A stretch of 58,818 nucleotides of DNA from an uncultured Planctomycetia bacterium (GCA_964508045.1 CAZDSO010000002.1:1-58818); one strand, 5' to 3'; shown: positions 389 to 58,430, numbered from the stretch's first letter. Program-made: numbers and translations. The notes: generated by a model not told the origin, from the sequence alone.

Positions 389-2815
389 ATGTGCGCCAAA
401 GGCCTGGACGCCGGGGAAGGTTTCATCGTCGGCGCGGACCGGCGCGGGGGAGAGGTGGTCTACACGCCGGAGCGCACGACCTACCTGAAGATCCCCTCCG
501 GCGACGAAGCCGAGCGGCAGATCACCTCGCTGGGCCTGTACACGCTCAAGATCGGCTCGGCGCGTTTCGTGTTCGGCGAGGACGCCATCCGGATCGCGCG
601 CACCCTCAAGAGAACGGACCAGCTTCGCTCGCCCTTCCGTCAGGGCCTTCCCGGCAACGATGAGAGGAAGCTCCTCTCCACCATCCTCTCCGCCGTGCTG
701 GGCGCCCCCGGCGAACGGGGCGAGACGGTCGCCTACACCGTCCACGGGGCGCCGATGGACGGCCAGCTCGACATCGCGGGCATCGCGAAGTTCTGGAGCG
801 AGCTTCTCGCCGGCTTCGGGTACCGGCCGGTCACGGTGGGGCGCGCCGAGGCGGCCCTGGCCGGCGAGTTCTGGCGGCGGCGGGACGCCGCGACGGCCGG
901 GGCGGCCCTCAGCATCGTCTTCGGGGAGATGGCCGTCGACATCTGCGCCCGGGACCGCCGCAAGACGATCCAGTTCAGCCTGCTCAGGGGAAGCGACTGG
1001 ATCGACGCGTCCGTGGCGAAGATGAAGGAGGTCCCCGTCGACCGGGTCCGGCACCTCCGGGAGGCGTCGCTGGACCTCACTCGCGTGGACCTCTCCCATC
1101 CCCTGCAGGCGGCGCTGGAGATCTACTTCGAGCACCAGATCCACTACACGCTGCAGCAGGTGGTGGCCCAGATCATGAAAAGCCGCTGGGAACCCGAGGG
1201 CCCGGTGCGGATGGTGGTGTCGGGCAGCTGCGTGCGGATCCCCGGTTTTCCGGCCAAGCTGGAAAAGGGCTTCAAGAAGGTGAAGATGCCCTTCCCGCTG
1301 GAGAAGGTGTTCGTCTCGCGGGAGCCGCTCCAGATGGCGGCGGCGGGCGCCCTCGTCCGGGCCCTGGAGGGGGCGGAGAAGGGCGCAAGCAGGGCGGCGC
1401 CCGCCCCGCCGGGCGCCGGGCGCTCACCCGTCTCCTCCAAGGGGCGGATCTCCGACATCTTCAAGACCGCCACGACGAAGTTCGCGGCGCGGGGCGCCGT
1501 CTCCCCCCCGGCCCCGGGGCAGCCCTCTCAGCCGGCCGCGGAGCCGTCTCCGGCCGCCCCCTCGGAGGACGCGTCCGCCGCCTTCAAGGAGAGGTTGAAG
1601 CGGCTGGAGGGCCGGATCGCCGAGCTGGAGGAGGAGGTCCTCGGGGAGGACCCCTCCTACGTGGAGGCCATGCGCCAGGCCGCGGGGATCGCGGGCGGGG
1701 GTCGCAAGGCGCGCGAGCAGGACTACCGCCCCTTTTTCGAGCTCATGGTGGAAAAGGGGGCGTCGGACCTGTTCCTGTCGGCGGGGGCGCGTCCGGCCAT
1801 GCGGGTGGACGGTCGCGTGGAGTTCATCTCGGGGAACACGCTCAACCAGGCGTTCTGCGTCGGTCTCGCCGAGGCCCTGTCGGGAAAGGCCTACGACGCG
1901 CTCTTCCGCAAGTGCAAGGGCGTGGATCTGGCGATCGAGCTGGAGGACATCGGGCGCTTCCGCGCCAATTTCTTCCACCAGCGCGGCCGCATGGGGGGGG
2001 TGTTCCGCTACATCAAGGAGCGCGTCCCCACGTTCGAGGAACTCAACCTGCCCGGGCGGACGCTGATGAAGATCTCGGCGCACCAGCGGGGCCTCGTGCT
2101 GGTGACGGGCGTGGCGGGCAGCGGAAAATCCACGACGATCGCGGGCATGCTCGAACACATCAACCAGACCTCGAACCGGCACATCGTCACCATCGAGGAC
2201 CCCATCGAGTTCGTCTTCTCCGAGAAACAGAGCGTGATCGACCAGCGGGAGGTGGGCCTGGACACGGACAACTTCATGACGGCCCTGAAATCGGCCGTCC
2301 GCCAGTCGCCGGACGTGATCTTCGTCGGGGAGATGCGCGACAAGGAAACCATGGAAGCCGCCATCTCCGCCGCCGAGACCGGCCACCTCGTCATGTCCAC
2401 CCTCCACACCGTGAACGCCCAGCAGACCGTGGAGAGGATCATCACCTACTTCCCCCCCTACCAGCACAACCTCATCCGCCTGCAGCTCTCCATGGTCCTG
2501 GTCGGCGTGCTCTCCGTGAGGCTCCTGCCCAAGAAGGGCGGCCAGGGACGCGTCCCCGCCCTCGAGATCATGCTCTCCACCCCCACCGTGAAGGACCTCC
2601 TGCTGACCGGGAAGACCAAGTCGCTCGACGCCGCCATCTCGGAGGACGTCCACTACGGCAACCAGACCTTCAACGAGTCGCTGAAGCAGCTCTACCAGGC
2701 CGGCGTGATCGACCTCGAGGAAGCGCTCTCCGCCGCGGACAACCCCGACGAATTCAAGCTTCAGGTCCGCGGCATCGTCCGCGGCGCCCGGGCTTCCGAC
2801 TTCAACTTCCAGTAG
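389..2815 (+). CDS. Fusion protein: N-terminal actin-fold (ParM/PilM/MreB-like) domain, coiled-coil linker, C-terminal PilT/PilU-type hexameric ATPase
   Basis: AGGAGG lies a few nt upstream of ATG 389. The N-terminal ~330 aa carry GLDAGEGFIV (phosphate-1-like), SIVFGEMAVDI (degenerate phosphate-2) and VVSGSCVRIPGF (adenosine-motif-like). A Pro/Ala-rich linker and FKERLKRLEGRIAELEEEV follow. The C-terminal ~360 aa carry Walker A GVAGSGKST, Asp box IVTIEDPIEF, Walker B DVIFVGEMRD and His box GHLVMSTLHT. Confidence 0.85.
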   Translation: MCAKGLDAGEGFIVGADRRGGEVVYTPERTTYLKIPSGDEAERQITSLGLYTLKIGSARFVFGEDAIRIARTLKRTDQLRSPFRQGLPGNDERKLLSTILSAVLGAPGERGETVAYTVHGAPMDGQLDIAGIAKFWSELLAGFGYRPVTVGRAEAALAGEFWRRRDAATAGAALSIVFGEMAVDICARDRRKTIQFSLLRGSDWIDASVAKMKEVPVDRVRHLREASLDLTRVDLSHPLQAALEIYFEHQIHYTLQQVVAQIMKSRWEPEGPVRMVVSGSCVRIPGFPAKLEKGFKKVKMPFPLEKVFVSREPLQMAAAGALVRALEGAEKGASRAAPAPPGAGRSPVSSKGRISDIFKTATTKFAARGAVSPPAPGQPSQPAAEPSPAAPSEDASAAFKERLKRLEGRIAELEEEVLGEDPSYVEAMRQAAGIAGGGRKAREQDYRPFFELMVEKGASDLFLSAGARPAMRVDGRVEFISGNTLNQAFCVGLAEALSGKAYDALFRKCKGVDLAIELEDIGRFRANFFHQRGRMGGVFRYIKERVPTFEELNLPGRTLMKISAHQRGLVLVTGVAGSGKSTTIAGMLEHINQTSNRHIVTIEDPIEFVFSEKQSVIDQREVGLDTDNFMTALKSAVRQSPDVIFVGEMRDKETMEAAISAAETGHLVMSTLHTVNAQQTVERIITYFPPYQHNLIRLQLSMVLVGVLSVRLLPKKGGQGRVPALEIMLSTPTVKDLLLTGKTKSLDAAISEDVHYGNQTFNESLKQLYQAGVIDLEEALSAADNPDEFKLQVRGIVRGARASDFNFQ

Positions 2816-2826
2816 CGTATGCCCCG

Positions 2827-4911
2827 ATGGCGAGACCGATCCCGGCGTGCAGCCTCCTTGCGGTCCTGGCCGCCCTCCTGGCGGCCCCGTCCCCCGCCCC
2901 CGCCGGGGAACAGAAAGACTCCCCCGCCGTCCGTTGCGAGGTCTTTCCCTCCGCCCTCCTCTCCTCCGCCTACTGGGGCCCCCTGCTCGTGGAAGCCCGG
3001 AACGACTCCCCACGCGCCGCGGACATCGACGTCGGTGCGATCACCGCGCAGGGCATCGATCCCGAAGCCCTCGACCTGGAACAGGCCTCCGCGAGCACGC
3101 GTTTCCGCGTGGCGGGCGACGCCGAGAAGCGCCTGTTCCTCTACCTCCCCCCCTTCTCGAGAAGCGATCCCATCGTGATGCGGGCGGCGGACGGGAAAAC
3201 CCTGTCTCCCCACCAGAGGGTCTTCCTCCACCCCAACCCCGGCTGGAAAGCCGTCCTTCTCCTCTCCGACGACGAGACCTGCGAGGCCGCCACCGTCCTC
3301 GAGAACCTCCTCAACGCCTGCACGGCCCCTCCGGCGAGCCTCCCCGAGCGCGCGGAAGGATTCGACGCCTTCCACACCGTCGTCCTTCACCGGCTGGATC
3401 CCGCGGCCCTGAGCCGCGCTTCCCGGCGCGCGATCCGGGACTGGACCGCGCGGGGGGGCCATCTCGTCCTCTCCCCCGGAGACGACGTCCTCCTCTTCCT
3501 GGACGGGATCCTGGCCGAGATCCACCCCTTCACCCCCGTGGACACCCTCCCGGACCACCCCGTCACCGCCTTCGGGGCGCTCGAACCCGGCGCCGCCCCG
3601 CCCCGGGAACCCCTCCACCTGCTCGAAGGGGGCGAGCCGCTTCTGAAAAGCCGGCGCGGCGAGGTCGTGGCCCGCTGGTCCCCCGCCGGCGCAGGAAGCG
3701 TCCTCGCCCTCTCCGCGAGCCTGGACCTCCTCGGCTCCCGCTCGACCGCCGGCCGGATCTGGTTCCTCCGCCGCGTCCTCTTCGCGGGAGGCATGATCGA
3801 AGCGCTGGACCACCACGGAGTGTGCCGCGAGACCCCGCTGCAGCAAGAATTCCTGGCCTCCGCGGCAACCGGACCGACGTCCGGGGAGGGGCTCCGGCTT
3901 TCCACCGGACGCCGGGCCGGCCGCCCCCACCTGATGCCTCCCTTCCGCCATTACTTCTCCAGCATCTTCGCCGGCGTCGAGAGAGACGTCACCGCCTTCG
4001 AGGAGAAAGAGGTCCTGCTGGCGCTGATGGAGGACCTGGCCTCCGCGCCGAGCCTCGGATTCGTCGCCCTTTTCCTGCTCGCCTTCCTCGCCGTGGTCGG
4101 ACCCCTCAACTTCCTCGTCTTGCGCCGGAAGCGAATCCCGGCGCTCGCTTCCGTCACCGTTCCGCTCGTCTCGACGGCGTTCGTCTTCCTCGTCGTCGTC
4201 TCGGGACTGGTCATCCGGGGCGGCCCCCGCGCGAGACGCCTGAACGTGGTGTTCACCCGATCCGGCGAATCGTGGGCCGTGGCGAATTCCCTGATCTCCT
4301 TCAGGACCGGCGCCGAGGGGACGTACGCACTGTCGAGCCCGGACGGGGCCTTCCATCTTCCCCCCGTGCCCTTCTGGACCAAAGCGTTCCGCCTGGAACA
4401 GGACGGCGCCGGACGTCTCACCCTCCCCCTGGACCGGTGGGACCTGGCGGGCGCCACCGCCGAGAGGACGATCCGGCTGGAGGGCGCCGTGGAGGCGTTC
4501 CTGGACGATGAAGGGTTCCACGTGCGGAACAGACTCCCGCTCTCCCTTCGAGGGCTCGTGATGACGCCGCCCCCGGATTGCCCGCTGGAGATCGCGGCCG
4601 CCTTCACGGCCGAGGACCGGGAGGGGACCTTCGCGTTCGGATTCGAGGTCGCGCCGGGCGCCTCGCTCGATTTTCTCTCGCCGCCCCCCCCGGCCCGGGC
4701 GCCCGCGCGGGAGGACCTCGTTCTGGCGAGCCTGTTGGACCACGCCCTCGGCCAGTCCTTTCCGACGTGGGGCGGGGGCGGTCTGGCCTGCTGGATCGAC
4801 GTCCCCTTTCCGGAGTTTCACGTGGACGGGGAGCCGATGGAACTGATGTCCGACCGGACGGCCCTGGTCATCCCCCTGCTGGATCGCAGGAAAGGGGGCG
4901 CCGGGGGATGA
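2827..4911 (+). CDS. Large secreted/membrane protein of unknown function (signal peptide plus internal TM helices)
   Basis: An in-frame ATG sits 11 nt after the upstream stop. Signal peptide is MARPIPACSLLAVLAALLAAPSPAPA. Hydrophobic helices are LGFVALFLLAFLAVVGPLNFLVL and ALASVTVPLVSTAFVFLVVVSGLVI. The segment FHTVVLHRLDPAALSRASRRAIRDWTARGGHLVLSPG resembles amidotransferase-like/DUF4350-type auxiliary proteins (recollection only). The upstream part of track ORF 1912..4911 is a shadow frame over the PilT-like gene. Confidence 0.7.
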   Translation: MARPIPACSLLAVLAALLAAPSPAPAGEQKDSPAVRCEVFPSALLSSAYWGPLLVEARNDSPRAADIDVGAITAQGIDPEALDLEQASASTRFRVAGDAEKRLFLYLPPFSRSDPIVMRAADGKTLSPHQRVFLHPNPGWKAVLLLSDDETCEAATVLENLLNACTAPPASLPERAEGFDAFHTVVLHRLDPAALSRASRRAIRDWTARGGHLVLSPGDDVLLFLDGILAEIHPFTPVDTLPDHPVTAFGALEPGAAPPREPLHLLEGGEPLLKSRRGEVVARWSPAGAGSVLALSASLDLLGSRSTAGRIWFLRRVLFAGGMIEALDHHGVCRETPLQQEFLASAATGPTSGEGLRLSTGRRAGRPHLMPPFRHYFSSIFAGVERDVTAFEEKEVLLALMEDLASAPSLGFVALFLLAFLAVVGPLNFLVLRRKRIPALASVTVPLVSTAFVFLVVVSGLVIRGGPRARRLNVVFTRSGESWAVANSLISFRTGAEGTYALSSPDGAFHLPPVPFWTKAFRLEQDGAGRLTLPLDRWDLAGATAERTIRLEGAVEAFLDDEGFHVRNRLPLSLRGLVMTPPPDCPLEIAAAFTAEDREGTFAFGFEVAPGASLDFLSPPPPARAPAREDLVLASLLDHALGQSFPTWGGGGLACWIDVPFPEFHVDGEPMELMSDRTALVIPLLDRRKGGAGG

Positions 4912-4965
4912 GGGATGGGGGAGGGGGGAGGGGGAATCGCGGATTCGCAGCGTGAGAGAACGCGC

Positions 4966-5892
4966 ATGATCGACATCGAGGGACTGGTGATGGATTTCGG
5001 CGCCAACCGGGCGCTGGACGGGATCTCCTTCACGGTGGAGGCGGGGGACATCTTCGGGTTCATCGGCCCGAACGGCGCCGGGAAGACGACGACCATGCGG
5101 ATCCTGGCCACGCTGCTCCATCCCACGGCCGGGAGGGCGCGGGTGGGGGGGCATTGCGTGGTGAACGCCCCCGAGAAGGTCCGCGCCCTCACCGGGACCA
5201 TGCCGGACACCTACGGGGTCTACGACGGATTGAGCGTGTGGGAGTACCTGGATTTCTTCGGGGCGGCGCACGGCCTCCGGCTTCCGGGCCGGAACCGGGC
5301 CGTCTCCGACGTGATGGCGCTGACGGACCTCGGGGCGTTCGCGGACCGCCCCGTCTCCGCGCTGTCGCGGGGCATGCAGCAGAGGCTCTGCGTGGCCAAG
5401 ACGCTGGTGCACGATCCCGCGGTGCTGATCCTCGACGAGCCGGCGGCCAACCTCGATCCCCGGGCCCGGATCGAGTTCCGGGCGCTGCTCAAGGAGCTCA
5501 AGACGCTGGGGAAGACCATCCTGATCTCGTCCCACATCCTCACCGAGCTCTCGGACGTGTGCACGCGGATCGGGATCATCGAGGCGGGGCGCATGGTGGC
5601 CACGGGCACGCGGGCCGAGATCCTGGAGCGGATCGCGGGAGCGCCGCAGGTGGTCGTGGAGGTGAGGGACCGGGCTGCGGAGGCGGCGCGTCTGGCGCTG
5701 GAGCTGCCTTTCGTGCGCGAGGCGACGGCCGGGGGGGACCGGATCCGGGTGGATTGCGAGGGGCCGGATCCAAACGTGCCGGCGCTGGTCAGGACGCTCG
5801 CGGAGGCGGGGGTCCCGATCCAGGGCGTGCGGATGGAGTCGGCGGACCTGGAGCATCTGTTTCTCGAGATCACGAAGGGGCAGGTGCAGTGA
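4966..5892 (+). CDS. ABC transporter ATP-binding protein (ABC-2/NosF/GldA-like)
   Basis: Walker A GPNGAGKTT, signature LSRGMQQRL, Walker B VLILDEPAANLD and H-loop SSHIL are present. The start is probably ATG 4966 (MIDIEGL...); ATG 4915 is the alternative. Confidence 0.9.
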   Translation: MIDIEGLVMDFGANRALDGISFTVEAGDIFGFIGPNGAGKTTTMRILATLLHPTAGRARVGGHCVVNAPEKVRALTGTMPDTYGVYDGLSVWEYLDFFGAAHGLRLPGRNRAVSDVMALTDLGAFADRPVSALSRGMQQRLCVAKTLVHDPAVLILDEPAANLDPRARIEFRALLKELKTLGKTILISSHILTELSDVCTRIGIIEAGRMVATGTRAEILERIAGAPQVVVEVRDRAAEAARLALELPFVREATAGGDRIRVDCEGPDPNVPALVRTLAEAGVPIQGVRMESADLEHLFLEITKGQVQ

Positions 5893-5902
5893 TGCGGCGC
5901 CT

Positions 5903-7645
5903 TTGATGCGGATGCATGATGCCCTGGAGGGGAAGGCCGGGATGAGCGGCGTGCTCGAAAAGACGCGGACGGCCCTGGACGGGTGGCTGGATCCGATCCT
6001 GATGAAGGAGCTCCGCGCCACGTTCCGGGGCTGGAAATTCTTCGGCGTGCACACGGGCTTTCTGGCCCTGCTTTCCGTGGCGCTGGTGGTGGTGATCCTC
6101 TCGATGTCGACGGCGGTCCGCTGGCAGCCGGCGTCGGTGGGCCGCACGGTCCACGCGGTGTTCCTGGGGGGGATGGCGCTGGCGATCCTGCTGGTGCTTC
6201 CCTCCTTCGCCTCCACCTCCATCGTGGGGGAGCGGGAGGTGAAGACCTTCGAGATGCTCCAGACGACGCAGCTGAGCGCGGCGGGGGTGGTGCGGGGCAA
6301 GTTCCTGGCGTCCATGGTCTACACGGCGGTGTTCCTCTTCTCATCGCTTCCCGTCGGCGCGATCGCCTTCCTCTACGGCGGCATCGGCGTGGGGAACCTC
6401 GTGGCGTCCTACGCGTGCCTTCTGGCGGTGTCGGCGATCTCGAACATCTTCTCCATCTTCATCTCGGCGCATTCGCGCACGAGCCGGACGGCGCTGGCGA
6501 GCACCGGCGCCTTCGGCATCGTCTGCCTGGTGGGGCTCGCCGGATACCTGGCCGCGCTTCCCTCGGAGGCCCTGAGCCGGAAGGCGATGAACCTTATCGG
6601 TCTGCAAGCGCTCGCCTTCCGCCCGTTTCCCACCGCGGATCCACCCGCGACGGATGCGCTGCTCTACCTCTTCGCGCTTCCCCTGTTCGTGATGGGTTCG
6701 ATCTTCGCCTTTTCCGCCCTCTCGGCGTCCAACCGCATCAAACCCCGCGCCGGCAACCGCTCCACGAACCTGAAACTGTTCTTCCTGGCGTTCATGATTC
6801 TCGGATCGGCTCTCTGGCTGCTCCTCCTCTTCCGGGCGGACTTCGGCCCCCCCTGGTCGCGCTGGCGCGCGGCCGCGACCTTTCTCGGCGCCTTCGGCAT
6901 CGTCGCCACCCTTTCCTCCTCCTTCGCCGCCGAAGATCCCCTGCACGCGCTCCCCGCCCGGCTGCGCGGCGGGACCCGCTTCTCCCCGCTCCGCTGCCTT
7001 CGGCCCGGGGCCCAGAACGGCTTTTTCTTCTGCCTCCTGCTCGCGATCCTGGCCGCCACCCCCGCCCTCCTTCTCCTGCGGACCTACATGCAGAGCGCCG
7101 GCGTCTCGTTCGTGCCCGCGCTCGTCGGGATGGGCCTGACGATCCTCTCCTTCCTCCTCCTCTCCGCCTCCGCCGGGCTCCTCCTGACCACGCTGATCCT
7201 CAACGAGCGGGCGCGCATGGTCGTCCAGTCGGGCATCGTCACCGCCCTCATCTTCCTTCCCCTGATCGCGTTCGCCGCGCGCCACCGCCTGGAGAAGATC
7301 TCCGAGGTGTCCCTGCTCGAACCGGGCCTCCTGAGCCCCGCCGTCGCGTTCGGATCGCTGACCACGGGGTTCTTCGAGTACATCACGGACGAACAGATAT
7401 GGAGGGGGGAATCCGCCTTTCCCTACTCGGCGGCGCTCGGGGAAGTCCGCCTGCCGGCCTTCCTCCTCACGGTGGGCATCCACCTGGCGCTCGGCCTGGC
7501 GCTGTGGATCGCGGCCGAGAGACGCCTGGCCAGGGCCGCCAAGCAGGCGCCCCCGCCCGCCGGCGACCCGCCGCCGCCCGCCGGCGACCCGCCGCCGGAG
7601 CCGGACGCGCTGGCCGCCGCTGAATGGTGCCGCGGACATGGGTGA
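5903..7645 (+). CDS. ABC-2 type transporter permease, polytopic, with a Pro-rich C-terminal tail
   Basis: The gene follows the ATPase after a 10-nt gap and has many hydrophobic segments. The N-terminal LDPILMKELRATFRGWKFF is typical of ABC-2 permeases. Possible starts are TTG 5903, ATG 5906 or ATG 5942 (the last has GGAGG upstream). The tail reads PPPAGDPPPPAGDPPPEPD. Confidence 0.75.
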   Translation: MMRMHDALEGKAGMSGVLEKTRTALDGWLDPILMKELRATFRGWKFFGVHTGFLALLSVALVVVILSMSTAVRWQPASVGRTVHAVFLGGMALAILLVLPSFASTSIVGEREVKTFEMLQTTQLSAAGVVRGKFLASMVYTAVFLFSSLPVGAIAFLYGGIGVGNLVASYACLLAVSAISNIFSIFISAHSRTSRTALASTGAFGIVCLVGLAGYLAALPSEALSRKAMNLIGLQALAFRPFPTADPPATDALLYLFALPLFVMGSIFAFSALSASNRIKPRAGNRSTNLKLFFLAFMILGSALWLLLLFRADFGPPWSRWRAAATFLGAFGIVATLSSSFAAEDPLHALPARLRGGTRFSPLRCLRPGAQNGFFFCLLLAILAATPALLLLRTYMQSAGVSFVPALVGMGLTILSFLLLSASAGLLLTTLILNERARMVVQSGIVTALIFLPLIAFAARHRLEKISEVSLLEPGLLSPAVAFGSLTTGFFEYITDEQIWRGESAFPYSAALGEVRLPAFLLTVGIHLALGLALWIAAERRLARAAKQAPPPAGDPPPPAGDPPPEPDALAAAEWCRGHG

Positions 7646-15706: not shown

Positions 15707-17089
15707 ATGATCCAGCCCTACATCGATTCCCACGCCCACCTCGATTTTCCGGCATTCGACGGCGAACGCGACGCCGTGCTCCGCCGCGCCCGCGACGCCG
15801 GCGTCGGCGCCGTCCTCACCGTCGGAACCGACCTCGAGGCCACGAAAACCTGCCTCGAGATCGCTTCCCGTTTCGAAAACGTCCGCGCCTCCGCGGGCAT
15901 CCACCCCCACGAGGCCGGACAAGCCTCCCCCGCCGCGCTCTCGGACCTCGAAGCCCTGGCCCGAGGCGGAGCGGCGGCCGTCGGCGAGATCGGCCTCGAC
16001 TACTACCGCGACCGCTCCCCCCGGGACCTCCAGCAACGCGCCTTCCGGGATCAGCTCGACCTCGCTTCCCGGCTGGACCTTCCCGTCATCATCCACACGC
16101 GGCAGGCCTGGGAGGACACGATCGGGATCCTCCGGCAACACCCCCCCCCGAAACGAGGCGTGATCCACTGCTTCTCCGGCGACGCCGACGAGGCCGCCGA
16201 GGCCCTGGCGCTCGGCTTCCACCTCTCCTTCGCCGGCCCCCTCACCTACACAAACGCCCGGAAGGCCCGCAAGGCCGCCGCCTCCGTCCCCCTCGAAAGG
16301 CTCCTGATCGAAACCGACGCCCCCTTCCTCGCCCCCCAGAGCCGGCGCGGGAAACGAAACGAACCCGCCTTCGTGACCGAGGTGGCGCGCGTCCAGGCCC
16401 GGCTGCACGGCGTCTCGCCCGAAGACGCCGGGCGCGTCACCTCCCTGAACGCCCGCACGCTCTTCGGCCTCGGCCCCCCGGTGCCCCCCGAGCGCATCGC
16501 CTACCCCATCCGGGACGCCCTCTACGTCAACCTCACCAACCGCTGCACCAACCGGTGCCGCTTCTGCCCCCGGGAAACCCGTCCCGTCGCGGGAGGGCAC
16601 GAGCTCGCGCTTCCCGCCGAACCCACGGTCCAGGAGGTCCTCGCGGCCGTCTCCGGCGCGCATCCGGACCGGTACCGCGAGGTCGTCTTCTGCGGCTTCG
16701 GCGAGCCGACGCTCCGCCTCGACGCCGTGATCGACGTCGGGAAGCGCCTGCGCGAAAAGGGCCTGCACGTGCGCCTCGACACCAACGGCACGGCGAACCT
16801 GGTCGCCGGGCGCGACGTGACGCCCGCGCTGGCGTCGGCGGTGGACGAGGTCTCGGTGAGCCTGAACGCGCACGACGCCGCGACGTACGCGCGCCTGTGC
16901 CGGCCGTCGTTCGGGGAGGGGACGTTCGAGGCCGTCGTGGACTTCGCGACCTCGGCCCGGACGCGGATCGGAAACGTGACCCTCTCGATCGTGGGCGGCC
17001 AGGACGGGGTGGACGAGGAAGCCTGCCGGCGGATCGCGGAAGAGGCGGGGGCGCGGTTCCGCCTCCGGCCGTACAAGGGGAAGGGGTAG
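15707..17089 (+). CDS. TatD-family metal-dependent hydrolase fused to a radical-SAM domain
   Basis: The N-terminus YIDSHAHLDFPAF...GEIGLDY...IIHTR...VIHCFSG...ETDAPFL is a TatD pattern. The C-terminal ~190 aa begin at YVNLTNRCTNRCRFCPRE, a CX3CX2C radical-SAM cluster motif. Confidence 0.88.
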   Translation: MIQPYIDSHAHLDFPAFDGERDAVLRRARDAGVGAVLTVGTDLEATKTCLEIASRFENVRASAGIHPHEAGQASPAALSDLEALARGGAAAVGEIGLDYYRDRSPRDLQQRAFRDQLDLASRLDLPVIIHTRQAWEDTIGILRQHPPPKRGVIHCFSGDADEAAEALALGFHLSFAGPLTYTNARKARKAAASVPLERLLIETDAPFLAPQSRRGKRNEPAFVTEVARVQARLHGVSPEDAGRVTSLNARTLFGLGPPVPPERIAYPIRDALYVNLTNRCTNRCRFCPRETRPVAGGHELALPAEPTVQEVLAAVSGAHPDRYREVVFCGFGEPTLRLDAVIDVGKRLREKGLHVRLDTNGTANLVAGRDVTPALASAVDEVSVSLNAHDAATYARLCRPSFGEGTFEAVVDFATSARTRIGNVTLSIVGGQDGVDEEACRRIAEEAGARFRLRPYKGKG

Positions 17090-23985: not shown

Positions 23986-26900
23986 ATGCCTGATCCTCGC
24001 AACCTGCTTGCAGTCCTTCTCCTCGCGGCGGCCCTGCCCCTCTCCTGCGCCGGCGGGCCGGAACCCGTTTTGAAAGAGGAACCTCACGCGAAGAAGGAGG
24101 CGGCACCGCCGGAGGAACCCGCCGAATCCGGATCCGAACCCGAACCCGAACCCGCCGCGCCGGCCCCGGCCCCCGGGGAGGACGTCGGGGAAGAAACGGA
24201 CGAAACCGATCCCCTCCGCGACCCCTTCGACACGACCTGGATCGAGAATCTCCTGGAACGCCGGACCTCCCGCGCCGCGTCCCTGGTCGGCCTGCTCGGG
24301 GACGACGCGAGACCCGCCGTCCCCTGGCTGATCGAGAGGGTCCCGGGCGACATCGGAAACCCCGCATTCGCCATCGAACGAGAGCCCCTGTCCATCCTCG
24401 GAGACGTCGCGCTTCCCGGCCTGCTCAGGTCCGTCGCCGGGCGCGGACCCTTCGCCGCGACGTCCGCGAGATGCGTGTCCCGCATCCCTGCAGGCGATCC
24501 CGCCCTCCTTCCCCTCTTCCGGACGACGGTGGAACAAGCCGAGGCGGACCACGCGGCACGCGTCCTGCACAGCCTCCGGGGCCTCGGCAAGGGAGCCGTC
24601 CCCTTCCTCGCCGGATGCCTCGAGGACGAACGCCCCGCCGTCCGGGAAAGCGCGGCACGGACCCTCGGGCGGATCGGACCCGGCGCCCAAGGGACGGTCT
24701 CCGCGCTCGTGAACCTTGCGCGCGACCCGGACGGAGGGGTCCGCGCCGGCGCCGCGTACGCGCTCGGCCGGACCGGCGCGCCCGGTTCGCTCGCGGTTCC
24801 CTTCCTCGCGGACCTCCTGGACGATCCCCGGGTTCCCGTGCGGCGCGAGGCCGTTTTGGCCCTCGGCCGCTTCGAGAGCGGGGAATCCGCCTCGCGGGCC
24901 GGGATCGTCCGCAAAGCCGCTGATCCCGCCGTGCGCTGGGAGTCGCTTCCGCTTCTTATGCTGGCGGAGGGAAGCGAATCCGAAGCGGTCCGGCGGGCGG
25001 TCCGGGAACGGTTCGAGGCAGGGGAGGACGATAAGGACGTGGAGCGGCTGGCGTCGATCGTCGAGGTCCTCGGAGGGTGGAGGGCGTCGAAAGGCAAGGC
25101 CTTTCCCTTCCTGGTGGAGGCCCTCTCGTTCGCCGACGACGTCAACCGGGAGACGATCGGGGGGATGCTCGACGGGATCGACATGCCCCCCGAAGCGGCC
25201 GCTCCCGTCTGGAAGCGGGCGTTGAGGCACGCCTCCGGCCCCGCCTTCGATCGGGCGGTGATGTTCTTCCTCGAGGCGAACGAAGCGCTCGGCCCGCTCC
25301 GCAAAGACCTGGTCGCGAGATTGCGCGAAGCGCTGGAAGCCGAACACGGAAGGCCCGAGGTCGTCGCCGGGATTCTCGCCCTGCTCGCGGCATCGGGGCG
25401 CCCTCCCGATCCGCAGCTCGTCGTGAAGGTCTTCGAGCCGGGGCGGCGCTGGCCCGACCCCGTCTTCGCGGAAGCCGTCCGGGTCCTCGCCATGGCCCCC
25501 GGCAAGGCGCTGGGTCCCCTGCTCGATCTGGCCCTCTCCCGGCGGGGCGGGCACTGGCATTTCGACAGGCCCCGCTGGCACTGGAGAGCGCTCGCGGCCC
25601 GGGCCATCGCCGGCGCCCTGCCCCTCGAGGAGAGGGGCGCCGCGAGAAGGCGGATCGCCCTCTATCCGGATCCCACCGTCCGGTTCCTCGCCGCGCCGGT
25701 TCCGAAGCTCGTCTCCCCCGCCGCACCGCGCGCCAGGACGTGGCGCGAGGGGGACCTTCGCGTGGAACGGATCGCCACCGAGGTGAGCCTCCCGCGGACG
25801 GTCCAGTTCACGGCCCTCGAGAGGCTGGGGAAGACGGGGCGGTTCCTCCTGCTGACGAGCGACGGCCAGCTCTACACGCTGGCCTCCCGGCCCGACGGAG
25901 GCGTCGAGACGGAGGCCTACCGCGACCTCCCCCTCGCGGCGCATCCGCCGGACCGTGTCCCCTCCTTCCTTCCGAAGATCTGGGAATACCTGGACGCCTC
26001 GCCGGAAGGCGGCGTCTTCGTCGCGGCGGGGGGGGATGACGACCCGGGAGACCGGAAGGCGCTTCTTTTGGTGTACCGGGCCGATGAACCCGGACCGGTC
26101 CTGGCGGGATCGTTGCCCGTCCGGTGGATCCGGGGCGCGGCGCTGGACGCGGAAGCCGGGCGGATCGCAGCGATCGATGACGCGTACGGGATCCACTGGC
26201 TCGATGTCCGCCTCGATCCCGAGCCCGCCTTCCTCGGCCGGGCGTCGGGAAGCGGCGGCCCCGACCAGCGATCCTGCGTCCTCCTGTCCGACGGCACGGT
26301 GCTCACGGGAACGCCCCAGGCCGGGCTCCTGGGCGCGCGTCCCGGAAGAGCCGCGCACCTCCTCTTCTGCCCCGAGGAGGAGGACGCCCCCGTGGTATCG
26401 GGCCCCCTGCCCGACGGCACCGTGCTGTTCGCGACGGTCACCGACCCGGCGGTCAGGAAGATGGATCCCGGGACGGGCCGCATCCTCTGGACGTCGCCGC
26501 TGGGCTCGTCGTTCCATCGGCTCGAGGCGGGCCCGGTCTACTGGGCGGCCTACGGGGGAAGCGAGATCGCGCTCGGGGACACGGAAACGGGCGAGGTTCT
26601 GGGCCGGCTTCCCCTGTCCGAGGAGGGCAGGGCGACGTTCAGCGGGGAAGCGCATTCCCATCACCGCGTGGTCGCCTTCGGGGCGGGCGGGCGGGCGCTG
26701 ATGGCGGTCGCGGTCTCCCAAGAGCGGTCCTGGATCATCCGGTTCCGTCTGACCAGAAGAAGCGATCGGGCCGGCGCCGTTCGCGGAGAGGACGGGACGC
26801 CTTCCGGAGCGGTCCCGGACGGGACGCCCCTCGAGCGGTGGATCGAGGATCTCCGCGCGGAACGGACCGACGTCCGCCATGCGGCCGCATCGGAGCTGGG

Positions 26901-28113
26901 CCGGCTGAGGGGGAAGGCCAGGCGTGCGCTTCCGGCGCTTCGCCAGGCGATCGAGGAGGAGATGGACGCCGAAAGGCCGGACGCCGCGTTCCTTTCCCTC
27001 CTCGTCGATGCGCTCGGCGGGATCGGGAAGGAGGCCGTGCCCGCCCTGGCGGGTCTACTCGAGGCGCAGGATCCCGGCGTCCGCGCGAAGGCCTGCCGGG
27101 CCCTGGCACGTCTCGGCCCGCGGGCCCGGGAGGCGTCGTTCCCGCTGGCCGGCCGGCTCGGCGACATCGACTGGGACGTCCGTCTGGAGGCGGCCCGGGC
27201 GCTTCATGCCTTGCGACCCGAAGCCCGCGGCGCGGCCGTGGCGCTTCGGGGCGCGCTGGACGATCGGAGCCTCCGGGTGCGGGAAGCGGCCCTCGCGGCC
27301 CTGATCGCGATGGGGGAGGCCGCGAGGCTTCCGCTCGAGGCGGGCCTGCCGGAGAGCGGGGGATTCCAGGCGCTCTACACGATCGAGGCCCTTTCCGCGC
27401 TCGGCGTTTTCGAGAAGAAACCGCTGCTGCTGCAAACGGCCCTGTCCCAGCTCGAGGGGCTTCTGGAATCCGGGGACGCCCTGCTCCGCTCGGAGTCGGC
27501 CCGCGTGTGCGGCCGTCTCGGCCCGCTCGCGGCGCCGATCCTCCAGTCCCTGGAGCTGGGCCTGTTCGACGAGCATTTCGAGGTCCAGAGGCGGACCGCC
27601 GAGAGCCTGCGGCGGGTCGGGGGGGGAAGCGAGCTGGGCGTGTCGGTCCTGGCGGGGACGCTCGCGAGCGAGGATCCGGTTCTCCGCCGACGGTGCGCCC
27701 GCGCGCTTGCCACGCTGGGGCCGGCGTCCCCAGCGGCGCTGCCGGCGCTCCTGGAAGCCCTCGAGGACGGGGACGGGTTCGTCCGCGCCTACGCCGCGGA
27801 AGCCCTGCGCGGGATGGGGTCGGAAGGCTTCGAGGCGCTGGCCGGGCGCCTGGGCTCTTCCGATCCCTTCCTGTGCGAGGAGGCGGCGCACGCTTTCCAG
27901 GGGGCGGGACGCGAGGCGCTTCCCGCGCTGCTGGCGGCCCTGCAGGCGGAAGGCTCGCGCGGATGGGGCGCCGTGGCGCTGGGGTGGATGGGGCCGGCGG
28001 CCTCCGAGGCGGCGCCGGCGCTGGAGGCGCTGGCCGGGGACGGGGATCCGTGGGTCCGGTCGGTGGCGGCCAAGGCGCGTCGCCGCATCGCGGGGCGGGA
28101 CGCGGGCCGGTGA
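23986..28113 (+). CDS. Giant lipoprotein: HEAT (PBS-lyase-type) repeat arrays flanking a beta-propeller-like core
   Basis: Lipobox LPLSC (Cys21) and an acidic Pro-rich linker are present. Repeated motifs include VRESAARTLGRIG, VRAGAAYALGRTG, VRREAVLALGRF, VRAKACRALARLG, VRLEAARALHAL and FVRAYAAEALRGMG. The central region carries DGTVL.../GTGRILWTSPLG/ETGEVLGRLPL strands. Confidence 0.85.
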   Translation: MPDPRNLLAVLLLAAALPLSCAGGPEPVLKEEPHAKKEAAPPEEPAESGSEPEPEPAAPAPAPGEDVGEETDETDPLRDPFDTTWIENLLERRTSRAASLVGLLGDDARPAVPWLIERVPGDIGNPAFAIEREPLSILGDVALPGLLRSVAGRGPFAATSARCVSRIPAGDPALLPLFRTTVEQAEADHAARVLHSLRGLGKGAVPFLAGCLEDERPAVRESAARTLGRIGPGAQGTVSALVNLARDPDGGVRAGAAYALGRTGAPGSLAVPFLADLLDDPRVPVRREAVLALGRFESGESASRAGIVRKAADPAVRWESLPLLMLAEGSESEAVRRAVRERFEAGEDDKDVERLASIVEVLGGWRASKGKAFPFLVEALSFADDVNRETIGGMLDGIDMPPEAAAPVWKRALRHASGPAFDRAVMFFLEANEALGPLRKDLVARLREALEAEHGRPEVVAGILALLAASGRPPDPQLVVKVFEPGRRWPDPVFAEAVRVLAMAPGKALGPLLDLALSRRGGHWHFDRPRWHWRALAARAIAGALPLEERGAARRRIALYPDPTVRFLAAPVPKLVSPAAPRARTWREGDLRVERIATEVSLPRTVQFTALERLGKTGRFLLLTSDGQLYTLASRPDGGVETEAYRDLPLAAHPPDRVPSFLPKIWEYLDASPEGGVFVAAGGDDDPGDRKALLLVYRADEPGPVLAGSLPVRWIRGAALDAEAGRIAAIDDAYGIHWLDVRLDPEPAFLGRASGSGGPDQRSCVLLSDGTVLTGTPQAGLLGARPGRAAHLLFCPEEEDAPVVSGPLPDGTVLFATVTDPAVRKMDPGTGRILWTSPLGSSFHRLEAGPVYWAAYGGSEIALGDTETGEVLGRLPLSEEGRATFSGEAHSHHRVVAFGAGGRALMAVAVSQERSWIIRFRLTRRSDRAGAVRGEDGTPSGAVPDGTPLERWIEDLRAERTDVRHAAASELGRLRGKARRALPALRQAIEEEMDAERPDAAFLSLLVDALGGIGKEAVPALAGLLEAQDPGVRAKACRALARLGPRAREASFPLAGRLGDIDWDVRLEAARALHALRPEARGAAVALRGALDDRSLRVREAALAALIAMGEAARLPLEAGLPESGGFQALYTIEALSALGVFEKKPLLLQTALSQLEGLLESGDALLRSESARVCGRLGPLAAPILQSLELGLFDEHFEVQRRTAESLRRVGGGSELGVSVLAGTLASEDPVLRRRCARALATLGPASPAALPALLEALEDGDGFVRAYAAEALRGMGSEGFEALAGRLGSSDPFLCEEAAHAFQGAGREALPALLAALQAEGSRGWGAVALGWMGPAASEAAPALEALAGDGDPWVRSVAAKARRRIAGRDAGR

Positions 28114-29264: not shown

Positions 29265-29409
29265 ATGGCAGAGGCGGAGCGGTACGAGCGGCTGTTCGAG
29301 GGGTTCAAGCGGGCGGGGCAGGAGCACGTCTTCGGGGGATGGGGGGATCTGGACGGTCCCCGCCGGAAGGCCTTCCTGGACCGTCTGGAGGGGGTGGATC
29401 CGGGGCTTT
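29265..29409 (+). pseudogene. 5' fragment (48 codons) of a UDP-N-acetylglucosamine/UDP-sugar pyrophosphorylase-like gene, truncated at the palindrome axis
   Basis: AGGAGG lies 6 nt upstream of ATG 29265. MAEAERYERLFEGFKRAGQEHVFGGWGDLDGPRRKAFLDRLEGVDPGL matches the characteristic UAP1/UDPGP N-terminus (AGQEHLL-FW--L------L---L). The frame runs into the axis, where the mirror sequence creates TAA at 29409-29411. Confidence 0.5.
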
Positions 29410-56003: not shown

Positions 56004-58430
56004 CTACTGGAAGTTGAAGTCGGAAGCCCGGGCGCCGCGGACGATGCCGCGGACCTGAAGCTTGAATTCGTCGGGGTTGTCCGCGGCGGAGAGCGCTTCC
56101 TCGAGGTCGATCACGCCGGCCTGGTAGAGCTGCTTCAGCGACTCGTTGAAGGTCTGGTTGCCGTAGTGGACGTCCTCCGAGATGGCGGCGTCGAGCGACT
56201 TGGTCTTCCCGGTCAGCAGGAGGTCCTTCACGGTGGGGGTGGAGAGCATGATCTCGAGGGCGGGGACGCGTCCCTGGCCGCCCTTCTTGGGCAGGAGCCT
56301 CACGGAGAGCACGCCGACCAGGACCATGGAGAGCTGCAGGCGGATGAGGTTGTGCTGGTAGGGGGGGAAGTAGGTGATGATCCTCTCCACGGTCTGCTGG
56401 GCGTTCACGGTGTGGAGGGTGGACATGACGAGGTGGCCGGTCTCGGCGGCGGAGATGGCGGCTTCCATGGTTTCCTTGTCGCGCATCTCCCCGACGAAGA
56501 TCACGTCCGGCGACTGGCGGACGGCCGATTTCAGGGCCGTCATGAAGTTGTCCGTGTCCAGGCCCACCTCCCGCTGGTCGATCACGCTCTGTTTCTCGGA
56601 GAAGACGAACTCGATGGGGTCCTCGATGGTGACGATGTGCCGGTTCGAGGTCTGGTTGATGTGTTCGAGCATGCCCGCGATCGTCGTGGATTTTCCGCTG
56701 CCCGCCACGCCCGTCACCAGCACGAGGCCCCGCTGGTGCGCCGAGATCTTCATCAGCGTCCGCCCGGGCAGGTTGAGTTCCTCGAACGTGGGGACGCGCT
56801 CCTTGATGTAGCGGAACACCCCCCCCATGCGGCCGCGCTGGTGGAAGAAATTGGCGCGGAAGCGCCCGATGTCCTCCAGCTCGATCGCCAGATCCACGCC
56901 CTTGCACTTGCGGAAGAGCGCGTCGTAGGCCTTTCCCGACAGGGCCTCGGCGAGACCGACGCAGAACGCCTGGTTGAGCGTGTTCCCCGAGATGAACTCC
57001 ACGCGACCGTCCACCCGCATGGCCGGACGCGCCCCCGCCGACAGGAACAGGTCCGACGCCCCCTTTTCCACCATGAGCTCGAAAAAGGGGCGGTAGTCCT
57101 GCTCGCGCGCCTTGCGACCCCCGCCCGCGATCCCCGCGGCCTGGCGCATGGCCTCCACGTAGGAGGGGTCCTCCCCGAGGACCTCCTCCTCCAGCTCGGC
57201 GATCCGGCCCTCCAGCCGCTTCAACCTCTCCTTGAAGGCGGCGGACGCGTCCTCCGAGGGGGCGGCCGGAGACGGCTCCGCGGCCGGCTGAGAGGGCTGC
57301 CCCGGGGCCGGGGGGGAGACGGCGCCCCGCGCCGCGAACTTCGTCGTGGCGGTCTTGAAGATGTCGGAGATCCGCCCCTTGGAGGAGACGGGTGAGCGCC
57401 CGGCGCCCGGCGGGGCGGGCGCCGCCCTGCTTGCGCCCTTCTCCGCCCCCTCCAGGGCCCGGACGAGGGCGCCCGCCGCCGCCATCTGGAGCGGCTCCCG
57501 CGAGACGAACACCTTCTCCAGCGGGAAGGGCATCTTCACCTTCTTGAAGCCCTTTTCCAGCTTGGCCGGAAAACCGGGGATCCGCACGCAGCTGCCCGAC
57601 ACCACCATCCGCACCGGGCCCTCGGGTTCCCAGCGGCTTTTCATGATCTGGGCCACCACCTGCTGCAGCGTGTAGTGGATCTGGTGCTCGAAGTAGATCT
57701 CCAGCGCCGCCTGCAGGGGATGGGAGAGGTCCACGCGAGTGAGGTCCAGCGACGCCTCCCGGAGGTGCCGGACCCGGTCGACGGGGACCTCCTTCATCTT
57801 CGCCACGGACGCGTCGATCCAGTCGCTTCCCCTGAGCAGGCTGAACTGGATCGTCTTGCGGCGGTCCCGGGCGCAGATGTCGACGGCCATCTCCCCGAAG
57901 ACGATGCTGAGGGCCGCCCCGGCCGTCGCGGCGTCCCGCCGCCGCCAGAACTCGCCGGCCAGGGCCGCCTCGGCGCGCCCCACCGTGACCGGCCGGTACC
58001 CGAAGCCGGCGAGAAGCTCGCTCCAGAACTTCGCGATGCCCGCGATGTCGAGCTGGCCGTCCATCGGCGCCCCGTGGACGGTGTAGGCGACCGTCTCGCC
58101 CCGTTCGCCGGGGGCGCCCAGCACGGCGGAGAGGATGGTGGAGAGGAGCTTCCTCTCATCGTTGCCGGGAAGGCCCTGACGGAAGGGCGAGCGAAGCTGG
58201 TCCGTTCTCTTGAGGGTGCGCGCGATCCGGATGGCGTCCTCGCCGAACACGAAACGCGCCGAGCCGATCTTGAGCGTGTACAGGCCCAGCGAGGTGATCT
58301 GCCGCTCGGCTTCGTCGCCGGAGGGGATCTTCAGGTAGGTCGTGCGCTCCGGCGTGTAGACCACCTCTCCCCCGCGCCGGTCCGCGCCGACGATGAAACC
58401 TTCCCCGGCGTCCAGGCCTTTGGCGCACAT
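56004..58430 (-). CDS. Actin-fold + PilT-type ATPase fusion (mirror copy)
   Basis: Mirror of 389..2815; identical protein. Confidence 0.85.
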   Translation of the reverse strand: MCAKGLDAGEGFIVGADRRGGEVVYTPERTTYLKIPSGDEAERQITSLGLYTLKIGSARFVFGEDAIRIARTLKRTDQLRSPFRQGLPGNDERKLLSTILSAVLGAPGERGETVAYTVHGAPMDGQLDIAGIAKFWSELLAGFGYRPVTVGRAEAALAGEFWRRRDAATAGAALSIVFGEMAVDICARDRRKTIQFSLLRGSDWIDASVAKMKEVPVDRVRHLREASLDLTRVDLSHPLQAALEIYFEHQIHYTLQQVVAQIMKSRWEPEGPVRMVVSGSCVRIPGFPAKLEKGFKKVKMPFPLEKVFVSREPLQMAAAGALVRALEGAEKGASRAAPAPPGAGRSPVSSKGRISDIFKTATTKFAARGAVSPPAPGQPSQPAAEPSPAAPSEDASAAFKERLKRLEGRIAELEEEVLGEDPSYVEAMRQAAGIAGGGRKAREQDYRPFFELMVEKGASDLFLSAGARPAMRVDGRVEFISGNTLNQAFCVGLAEALSGKAYDALFRKCKGVDLAIELEDIGRFRANFFHQRGRMGGVFRYIKERVPTFEELNLPGRTLMKISAHQRGLVLVTGVAGSGKSTTIAGMLEHINQTSNRHIVTIEDPIEFVFSEKQSVIDQREVGLDTDNFMTALKSAVRQSPDVIFVGEMRDKETMEAAISAAETGHLVMSTLHTVNAQQTVERIITYFPPYQHNLIRLQLSMVLVGVLSVRLLPKKGGQGRVPALEIMLSTPTVKDLLLTGKTKSLDAAISEDVHYGNQTFNESLKQLYQAGVIDLEEALSAADNPDEFKLQVRGIVRGARASDFNFQ

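Follow-up and report, generated by a model that had tools for sequence, protein, structure and literature searches.

A volactin-family actin-fold domain fused to a PilT-type ATPase in uncultured Planctomycetota

The 58,818-bp stretch of uncultured Planctomycetia DNA analysed here (GCA_964508045.1 CAZDSO010000002.1:1-58818; hereafter the window, on whose full length all feature coordinates are counted) encodes, close to its start, a single 808-aa protein that joins an N-terminal actin-fold domain of the volactin family to a complete PilT-type ATPase. Both modules belong to known families; what is new is the domain architecture, and probably also a branch of pseudo-enzymes to which the N-terminal domain belongs. 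An earlier reading made from the sequence alone (the sequence-only reading) had called a covalent fusion of this kind unfamiliar, and we likewise found no description of it in the literature searched, though databases carry proteins with both Pfam domains; there the fusions are annotated as plain PilT and their fragments as ‘volactin, partial’. The same reading had placed a single open reading frame (ORF) with a series of motifs at this position, and every motif it quoted was located in the 808-aa protein in the order and at the positions given, an agreement far beyond chance. No transmembrane segment was predicted in the fusion protein by a transmembrane scan. As laid out below, the gene is real and conserved, and its product is a cytoplasmic single polypeptide of two known modules.

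389..2815, + strand: volactin-PilT fusion coding sequence, stop codon included; a single uninterrupted ORF with an ATG start, 808 aa, matching PF25216 and PF00437.

An identical 808-aa protein is encoded on 10 contigs of independent assembly (sources JGI, ENA and Logan), the flanks being normal on L002-L004, and a search for the same architecture in other genomes gave eight further distinct full-length fusions of 799-861 aa (proteins P0002-P0007, one of 819 aa at locus L006 and one of 861 aa at L011) at 47-66% identity, which makes nine with the window protein counted. All of the other full-length fusions with precomputed matches carry both Pfam domains, and their linkers have diverged in sequence and length without any stop codon. 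The G+C content at third codon positions (GC3) of the window gene lies between 0.90 and 0.98 in each 60-codon block, the linker included, and this uniformity indicates a single reading frame throughout with no sign of a frameshift. The architecture is real but rare: when 1.84 billion cluster representatives were scanned exhaustively for the N-domain with HMMER, the matches listed contained a single full-length fusion, P0002, and the fragments P0051 and P0052, which we take to mean that all fusions presumably sit in one 50%-identity cluster. A metagenome scan added one more fusion, that of L011, its remaining four loci being weak P-loop matches, and the N-domain by itself retrieved no more than 3 close fragments in a word-indexed homologue search. 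The named carriers of the fusion are metagenome-assembled genomes (MAGs) of Planctomycetota.

These observations effectively refute the alternative that the fusion is an artefact in which adjacent genes were joined by a frameshift, a misassembly or a palindromic chimera of the window contig. The suspicion had two grounds. The fragment P0052 (363 aa) corresponds to the L011 gene: it is 98% identical to the first 300 residues of that fusion and then diverges, probably through a frameshifted or truncated gene call. The window itself is a perfect palindrome centred at 29409/29410: without a single mismatch, positions 29410-58818 are the reverse complement of 1-29409. Against the artefact stand the identical ORF on the 10 contigs, the eight other fusions with stop-free linkers of differing length, the even GC3 across the linker, the conservation of a coiled-coil helix within the junction region, and the 26.6 kb that separate the palindrome centre from the fusion gene. 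The halves are thus not separate genes joined by a sequencing error. The palindrome looks like a fold-back or hairpin assembly chimera, an artefact of the contig; L002 and L003, which carry the same genes, are non-palindromic over the 22-kb stretches examined. It leaves the fusion gene unaffected, because that gene has normal, non-palindromic flanks on independent contigs. The fold-back is worth flagging for users of the window contig, in which only 29.4 kb of sequence is unique and every gene is present twice, mirrored.

56004..58430, - strand: mirror image of the fusion gene produced by the whole-window palindrome, not a second copy.

The sequence-only reading had recognised in the N-terminal part the motif order of the actin/ParM/PilM/MreB fold, and the fold stands on three lines of evidence.

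389..1387, + strand: N-terminal domain, aa 1-333, with an actin fold, divergent within the volactin family (Pfam, AlphaFold2, Foldseek).

In the Pfam scan, aa 3-325 align to nearly the whole Volactin model (PF25216, positions 2-321 of 321) with E 4.6e-37 and 128.6 bits, where the gathering cutoff is 35. An AlphaFold2 (AF2) model of the domain built on 53 family sequences reached pLDDT 95.1 and pTM 0.92, and its best Foldseek matches in the PDB were MreB, MamK, the BeeR filament (TM-score 0.69), actin, ParM and Hsp70 nucleotide-binding domains, with probability 1.00 for MreB, MamK, BeeR and actin. The PilM lineage did not hold up. As a single query the N-domain had no match in a search of PDB sequences, so that a profile of the family was required; this profile placed MamK first (1.3e-13), followed by BeeR (2.5e-11), MreB (4e-07) and FtsA (2e-05), with PilM (5eox) marginal at 0.024. 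The Pfam scan of the N-domain gave no match to PilM and, at E up to 1, none to MreB_Mbl (PF06723), to which some other volactin members do match weakly, and PilM was absent from the top 50 Foldseek matches. Since the family profile reaches PilM at E of about 0.02 and MamK at 1e-13, sequence comparison assigns the N-domain to a volactin/MamK-MreB-like lineage and not to that of PilM.

Within this lineage the domain is set apart from its relatives in several ways. It shares with volactin of Haloferax volcanii (HVO_2015) and with PF25216 a full-length model match above the gathering score, the actin fold, and an N-terminus that aligns with the M-A-K-G-L-D-x-G start. It scores 129 bits, however, whereas ten other family members scanned score 238-379 bits, which marks the fused clade as a divergent branch. 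Volactin is also a stand-alone archaeal actin homologue, the one family member shown to build dynamic filaments and to take part in the formation of disk-shaped cells (PMC10869688), whereas the fused N-domain is bacterial, from Planctomycetota, is joined to a PilT ATPase, and has its nucleotide-site residues replaced. MamK, MreB and BeeR are its top matches both in structure (TM-score 0.6-0.7) and by family profile, but identity to them is about 12-16%, and they differ from it by its degenerate ATP site and by its fusion to a motor ATPase. PilM, for its part, has an actin fold and works with PilB and PilT hexamers, and the role we propose for the N-domain is analogous; it is nevertheless a separate polypeptide of the FtsA/PilM branch, so that the likeness is one of role and not of membership. 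Other connections were dropped. A link to saltatorellin was abandoned, as this MamK-like Saltatorellus actin is stand-alone, with no fusion in the study that describes it (bioRxiv 10.1101/817700); a phage origin was rejected, the N-domain having no PHROG match; and a role in defence was rejected, the PADLOC matches reflecting merely generic P-loop or ABC similarity.

An alignment of 121 non-fused volactin domains with 10 fused ones has 47 columns in which conservation among the non-fused domains reaches 80% or more. Of these columns, 21 are retained in the fused clade, 17 are partly retained and nine are lost altogether. Six of the nine lie at the nucleotide site, in the phosphate-1, catalytic-Glu, phosphate-2 and adenosine motifs, for which the family consensus reads GLDxGT (phosphate 1), NEAxA (conserved Glu), SFGAGMxNV (phosphate 2) and GGTS..GF (adenosine). 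The other three are L45, K224 (a conservative change to R) and Y247, and the core structural Gly, Asp and Pro positions are kept.

401..424, + strand: phosphate-1 loop GLDAGEGF, aa 5-12; DxGT in the family, DxGE here.
Position 10: T in the family (95%), E in 10/10 fused domains.
aa 62-66: FGEDA, an N-domain motif.
836..859, + strand: VGRAEAAL; the glutamate of the family ‘NEA’ (96% E) is Arg152 in all fused domains.
Position 152: E in the family (96%), R in 10/10 fused domains.
917..943, + strand: phosphate-2 region VFGEMAVDI, aa 177-185; S177, G181 and N184 all replaced.
Position 177: S in the family (96%), V or C in the fused domains.
Position 181: G in the family (98%), varied in the fused domains.
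Position 184: N in the family (94%), D in 10/10 fused domains.
1214..1249, + strand: adenosine-motif region VVSGSCVRIPGF, aa 276-287; the second Gly of the family GGTS..GF (G280) replaced.
Position 280: G in the family (98%), S, K or P in the fused domains.

The fused clade therefore lacks the nucleotide-site residues of its own family (DxGT, NEA, SFGAGMxN and GGT). The sequence-only reading had judged the site degenerate from a missing DxGGG and the domain possibly a non-catalytic scaffold. The missing DxGGG turned out to be no evidence of degeneracy by itself, because it is absent from the whole volactin family (consensus SFGAGMxN); the degeneracy itself is borne out by the departure of the fused clade from its own family, and the scaffold proposal is strengthened by the loss in that clade of residues that are at least 93% conserved in the 121 other volactin domains. 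From this selective, clade-wide and partly charge-swapping replacement we infer that the fused N-domain is probably a pseudo-ATPase scaffold that has given up the nucleotide binding and hydrolysis of its relatives, and the pocket that once took the phosphates may now be filled by acidic and basic side chains.

Between the two folded parts, the Pro/Ala linker and short coiled coil described from sequence were both recovered, as a disordered stretch over aa 334-394 and a helix over aa 395-417, and the C-terminal part is a PilT/PilU-like ATPase with all four catalytic boxes, as had been claimed.

1388..1570, + strand: Pro/Ala-rich linker, aa 334-394, predicted disordered, of variable length between homologues.
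1571..1639, + strand: amphipathic helix forming a predicted short coiled coil, aa 395-417, with FKERLKRLEGRIAELEEEV at aa 399-417 (helix from the AF2 model, heptad read from the sequence).
1652..1690, + strand: second conserved helix, PSYVEAMRQAAGI, aa 422-434, just ahead of the PilT domain (AF2 model, alignment).
1721..2812, + strand: complete PilT/PilU-family ATPase, aa 445-808, with N- and C-terminal PilT domains (TIGR01420, 5fl3).
2108..2134, + strand: Walker A, GVAGSGKST, aa 574-582, identical in the seven full-length members aligned.
2195..2218, + strand: Asp box, EDPIEFVF, aa 603-610.
2312..2341, + strand: Walker B with the catalytic Glu, DVIFVGEMRD, aa 642-651.
2381..2410, + strand: His box, GHLVMSTLHT, aa 665-674.
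2585..2614, + strand: TVKDLLLTGK, aa 733-742, at the position of the PilT AIRNLIRE motif; hydrophobic pattern kept, charged residues changed.

A full-length AF2 model has pLDDT above 90 for aa 1-333 and below 50 over aa 336-394; its second helix spans aa 422-431, and the PilT fold begins in it near aa 445. Inside the linker lies a short conserved motif, GRISDIF..AT..F (1442-1483). The helix that follows the linker places F/L/L/I/L/V at 4-3-4-3-4 spacing, and its E407, A411 and E414 are invariant in the alignment of the seven full-length members. In the L011 fusion gene (959-3544) the Pro/Ala linker is 54 aa longer than that of the window.

Over their full length, the C-terminal 373 aa match solved PilT structures, with E 3.5e-100 over residues 14-360 of 368 in Thermus PilT (5fl3), and the family assignment is supported by Pfam T2SSE (PF00437, E 1.8e-39) and by NCBIfam TIGR01420 pilT_fam (417.3 bits against a cutoff of 319.1, aa 451-788 over model positions 7-343 of 343). 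Across the seven aligned members, the Walker A, Asp, Walker B and His boxes are identical or near-identical, and between the two subclades of the fusion the C-domain is 72-74% identical whereas the N-domain is only 35-37% identical, which makes the PilT part the most constrained; sequence comparison thus shows its catalytic boxes intact and under strong constraint. AIRNLIRE is the C-terminal motif of Pseudomonas aeruginosa PilT and is linked to retraction function. That it is replaced here, as the sequence-only reading had pointed out, is correct (TVKDLLLT in the window, TIKDLLLT in relatives), but the replacement has no special status, as Thermus PilT reads YVRELLKD at the same position; because this solved PilT deviates too, the deviation is weak evidence against a PilT sensu stricto. 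The nearest non-fused relatives of the C-domain (52% identity) are ordinary 369-370-aa PilT genes from a Planctomycetota MAG and from Sumerlaeota, and on these sequence relationships the motor is recruited from a canonical PilT. A ‘pre-fusion’ volactin gene beside these nearest PilT-only relatives was not found, tblastn giving no match in L007-L010, where the neighbours are unrelated. Set against PilT and PilU as a whole (TIGR01420; Thermus 5fl3, Aquifex 2ewv, P. aeruginosa 3jvu, PilU 9n32), the C-domain shares the end-to-end alignment, a score above the family cutoff and all the boxes. Canonical members, however, are stand-alone proteins of 340-400 aa, whereas the fusion has about 445 extra N-terminal residues (actin fold, linker and coiled coil), a Walker A that reads GVAGSGKST, TVKDLLLT at the AIRNLIRE position, and a gene that lies in an ABC-2 cassette and not near pilus genes.

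This cassette consists of four co-directional genes, namely the fusion, an envelope protein of about 650-720 aa with two transmembrane helices, an ATP-binding cassette (ABC) ATPase (ABC_tran) and an ABC-2 permease (ABC2_membrane_3).

2827..4911, + strand: gene for the 694-aa envelope protein, starting 11 nt past the fusion stop (gene call, Pfam, transmembrane scan).
4966..5892, + strand: ABC transporter ATPase, DrrA/GldA-like, 308 aa (325 aa from an alternative ATG at 4915; Pfam ABC_tran).
5906..7645, + strand: long ABC-2 permease, 579 aa, about 12 hydrophobic segments (weak Pfam ABC2_membrane_3, transmembrane scan; orthologues in L001, L005 and L006).

The window, L001, L005, L006 and the P0006 contig all have this gene order, with differing genes upstream. 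The 694-aa protein comprises a signal peptide, a domain of about 370 aa with a weak DUF4350 match, two transmembrane helices separated by a short conserved Arg/Lys-rich loop (VGPxNFxxLRR), and a C-terminal domain of about 230 aa. Its homologues at the same position in L001, L005 and L006 are only 23-25% identical between subclades, indicating fast divergence, and a word-indexed homologue search with it returned only itself. The orthologues of the ABC ATPase in L001, L005 and L006 are 58-60% identical. Like the GldA/GldF/GldG and DrrAB exporters, the cassette combines an ABC ATPase (best DrrA/GldA), an ABC-2 permease (weak GldF) and a large envelope accessory protein, whose weakly matched DUF4350 is related to the GldG-type auxiliary domain. 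Unlike in those exporters, all scores fall below the family cutoffs (ATPase, drrA 236 bits and GldA 206.6 against a cutoff of 402.6; permease, GldF 26 against 288.5), the permease is about twice the usual length and the accessory protein has a different topology; the NCBIfam scan of the cassette genes gave no GldG match. We know of no link between Gld/Drr-type ABC-2 exporters and a PilT-like ATPase. Pilus genes are absent from the 29 kb of unique window sequence, and none is called within the 10 kb that flank the fusion on each side in L001, L002/L003 and the P0006 contig. What the unique window sequence carries beyond the cassette is housekeeping genes, among them those for RNase PH, ClpXP, trigger factor, a D-Ala-D-Ala carboxypeptidase and RsgA.

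A mechanism can be proposed by analogy with type IV pilus machines, in which PilM is an actin-fold stator or socket for the PilB and PilT hexamers at the machine base and binds a short cytoplasmic peptide of the membrane protein PilN (PMC11656802). The reading we favour, which we hold tentatively and at a little under an even chance, is that a PilT hexamer acts as the sole motor and carries six built-in pseudo-actin adaptors in a PilM-like role. The PilT part would form its usual ring, and the six tethered pseudo-actin domains, without nucleotide cycling, would provide a scaffold or stator-like adaptor within the same polypeptide, the counterpart in cis of the separate PilM of the pilus machine, while the conserved coiled coil would pair or bundle adjacent protomers. 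The adaptor would dock the ring to a membrane partner, for which the likeliest candidate is the complex of the three downstream genes (the envelope protein with two transmembrane helices and a basic loop plus the DrrA/GldA-like ABC-2 exporter), and the locus would then specify an envelope machine other than a canonical pilus, or a pilus accessory. The conserved four-gene order, the 11-nt gap and the differing upstream genes argue for a functional link of the fusion to the cassette.

Several points weigh against this adaptor model. The 694-aa protein, with a topology predicted from its signal peptide and the transmembrane scan, would show the cytoplasm only a loop of about 8 residues, a small docking surface, and the N-domain is related to PilM by shared fold alone. 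The conserved gene order could reflect co-regulation rather than physical assembly, and the true partner is possibly a canonical pilus machine encoded elsewhere in the genome, our examination having covered the flanks only. The full-length AF2 model has a pTM of 0.50 and predicts no confident interdomain geometry. Finally, the volactin family as a whole does without the canonical DxGGG, yet H. volcanii volactin makes dynamic filaments (PMC10869688), so that the loss of motifs is suggestive of lost cycling and not proof of it. A bolder version, which we consider unlikely, is that the fusion, the envelope protein with two transmembrane helices and the long ABC-2 exporter together make up an unrecognised envelope machine of subsurface Planctomycetota, in which a PilT hexamer with its own pseudo-actin stator would power a task unrelated to pili, for instance exporting or retracting a surface polymer or adhesin, or remodelling the membrane or cell shape. 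If true, the fusion would also serve as a ‘Rosetta stone’ for the ability of volactin-type actins to act as one unit with PilT-type motors.

Two other accounts of the protein have to be weighed against the adaptor model. On one of them, the actin-like domain still polymerises, with a nucleotide-free or rebuilt site, and its filaments carry or position PilT hexamers (for example at the pole or along the cell), or the PilT ring remodels or disassembles the filament, which would make the protein a cytoskeleton-coupled motor and not a static adaptor. The confident and complete actin fold, the dynamic filaments formed in vivo by the founding member of the family, and the full retention of 21 of the 47 family-conserved positions, core Gly, Asp and Pro included, all speak for it, as do other volactin fusions (with coiled coils, kinases, Wzz/BY-kinase and ParB-HTH), which suggest that the family often serves as a positioning platform; in P. 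aeruginosa, as Cowles and Gitai reportedly found in 2010, MreB influences pilus localisation and function. We nonetheless regard polymerisation as improbable, since no member retains the residues through which nucleotide state is coupled to polymer dynamics, and a 6-fold ring on a linear polymer would pose steric and symmetry problems. On the other account, the fusion is the type IV pilus retraction ATPase of its lineage with an extra N-terminal regulatory or localisation domain, serving a PilC/PilM/PilN/PilO/PilQ machine of the standard type whose genes lie elsewhere, with the ABC-2 cassette a mere neighbour. This would fit a C-domain that passes the PilT/PilU family threshold and whose nearest non-fused relatives (52%) are ordinary PilT, the one in L010 adjoining more T2SSE and MshEN genes, and pilT genes are often unlinked from other pilus genes. 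It fits poorly with a four-gene order kept between subclades whose fusions are about 51% identical and whose upstream genes differ, with the 11-nt intergenic gap, with the lack of conservation of the retraction-linked AIRNLIRE motif, and with flanks in none of which, as far as examined, a pilus gene was found; cultured Planctomycetes, moreover, are reported to possess pili but to lack both a retraction ATPase and twitching (bioRxiv 10.1101/817700). A dedicated retraction ATPase therefore seems to us a doubtful explanation.

To our knowledge, the only cooperation on record between actin-fold proteins (PilM, and more indirectly MreB) and secretion-superfamily ATPases is one of separate proteins, and a conserved covalent fusion is direct genomic evidence of a partnership between the two. 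Structural biologists could use the fusion as it stands to study how a PilT ring is constrained or positioned by an actin-fold module, and the concerted rewriting of the ATP site, with T10E and E152R fixed, would be a clean natural example of an actin fold turned pseudo-enzyme scaffold. With this protein the recently named volactin family, known for the control of haloarchaeal cell shape, reaches into bacteria and into a motor context, and the fixed association with ABC-2 genes rather than pilus genes hints at use of a PilT-type motor outside pili. The clade concerned is very small and uncultured, and is known here from sequence alone.

The volactin family proved far wider than the haloarchaea, the N-domain HMMER scan giving 411 representative clusters at E up to 1e-3, among them proteins of Patescibacteria and Planctomycetota. 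Many other architectures in the family also look unreported (P0139, P0181, P0120, P0070, P0062/P0065 and P0148); in them volactin is combined with a Ser/Thr kinase, a coiled coil of about 500 aa, Wzz and a BY-kinase-like P-loop (in a Planctomycetota MAG) or a ParB helix-turn-helix (HTH), is repeated in tandem, or is interrupted by an intein with a LAGLIDADG domain. The nearest stand-alone volactin, P0053, lies on a 2.5-kb contig whose neighbours are uninformative. At L016 (1-13023) and L017, a stand-alone volactin-like gene (P0058) sits among about 16 co-directional, mostly small genes nearly without Pfam matches; its product has a weak PHROG match to a ‘partition protein’, pointing to a phage or plasmid segregation actin of the volactin family.

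A few observations concern the neighbourhoods of the fusion and of its PilT relatives. In one subclade the cassette is followed by a PDZ-domain protein of about 812 aa (L001 17053-19494 and the P0006 contig), and a smaller PDZ protein directly follows the closest stand-alone PilT in L007 (6137-7027); judged from these gene orders, an association of PilT with PDZ proteins may recur. Upstream of the fusion in L001 (7993-10004), an acyl-CoA dehydrogenase is joined to a MeaB GTPase in a 571-aa ORF, followed by a 101-aa ORF that matches the MeaB C-terminus. On the P0006 contig the two are normal genes of 379 and 323 aa, and the joining in L001 is probably a frameshift or merge error of that contig. 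The L006 contig (DYIT01000019.1) is titled ‘Candidatus Kuenenia stuttgartiensis isolate FI88_62_9’. Its 18.5-kb stretch has 64% G+C, whereas Kuenenia has about 41%, and the fusion gene on it shares 75% identity with the one from an unclassified Planctomycetota MAG (P0005), on which grounds the label looks wrong.

Elsewhere in the window, a 460-aa ORF (15707-17089, + strand) joins a full TatD-related DNase domain at aa 6-254 (E 7e-82) to a radical SAM domain at aa 274-437 (E 2e-17), a pairing that we do not recognise as a standard architecture, and a very large HEAT/Armadillo-repeat protein of 1375 aa is encoded at 23986-28113 (+ strand).

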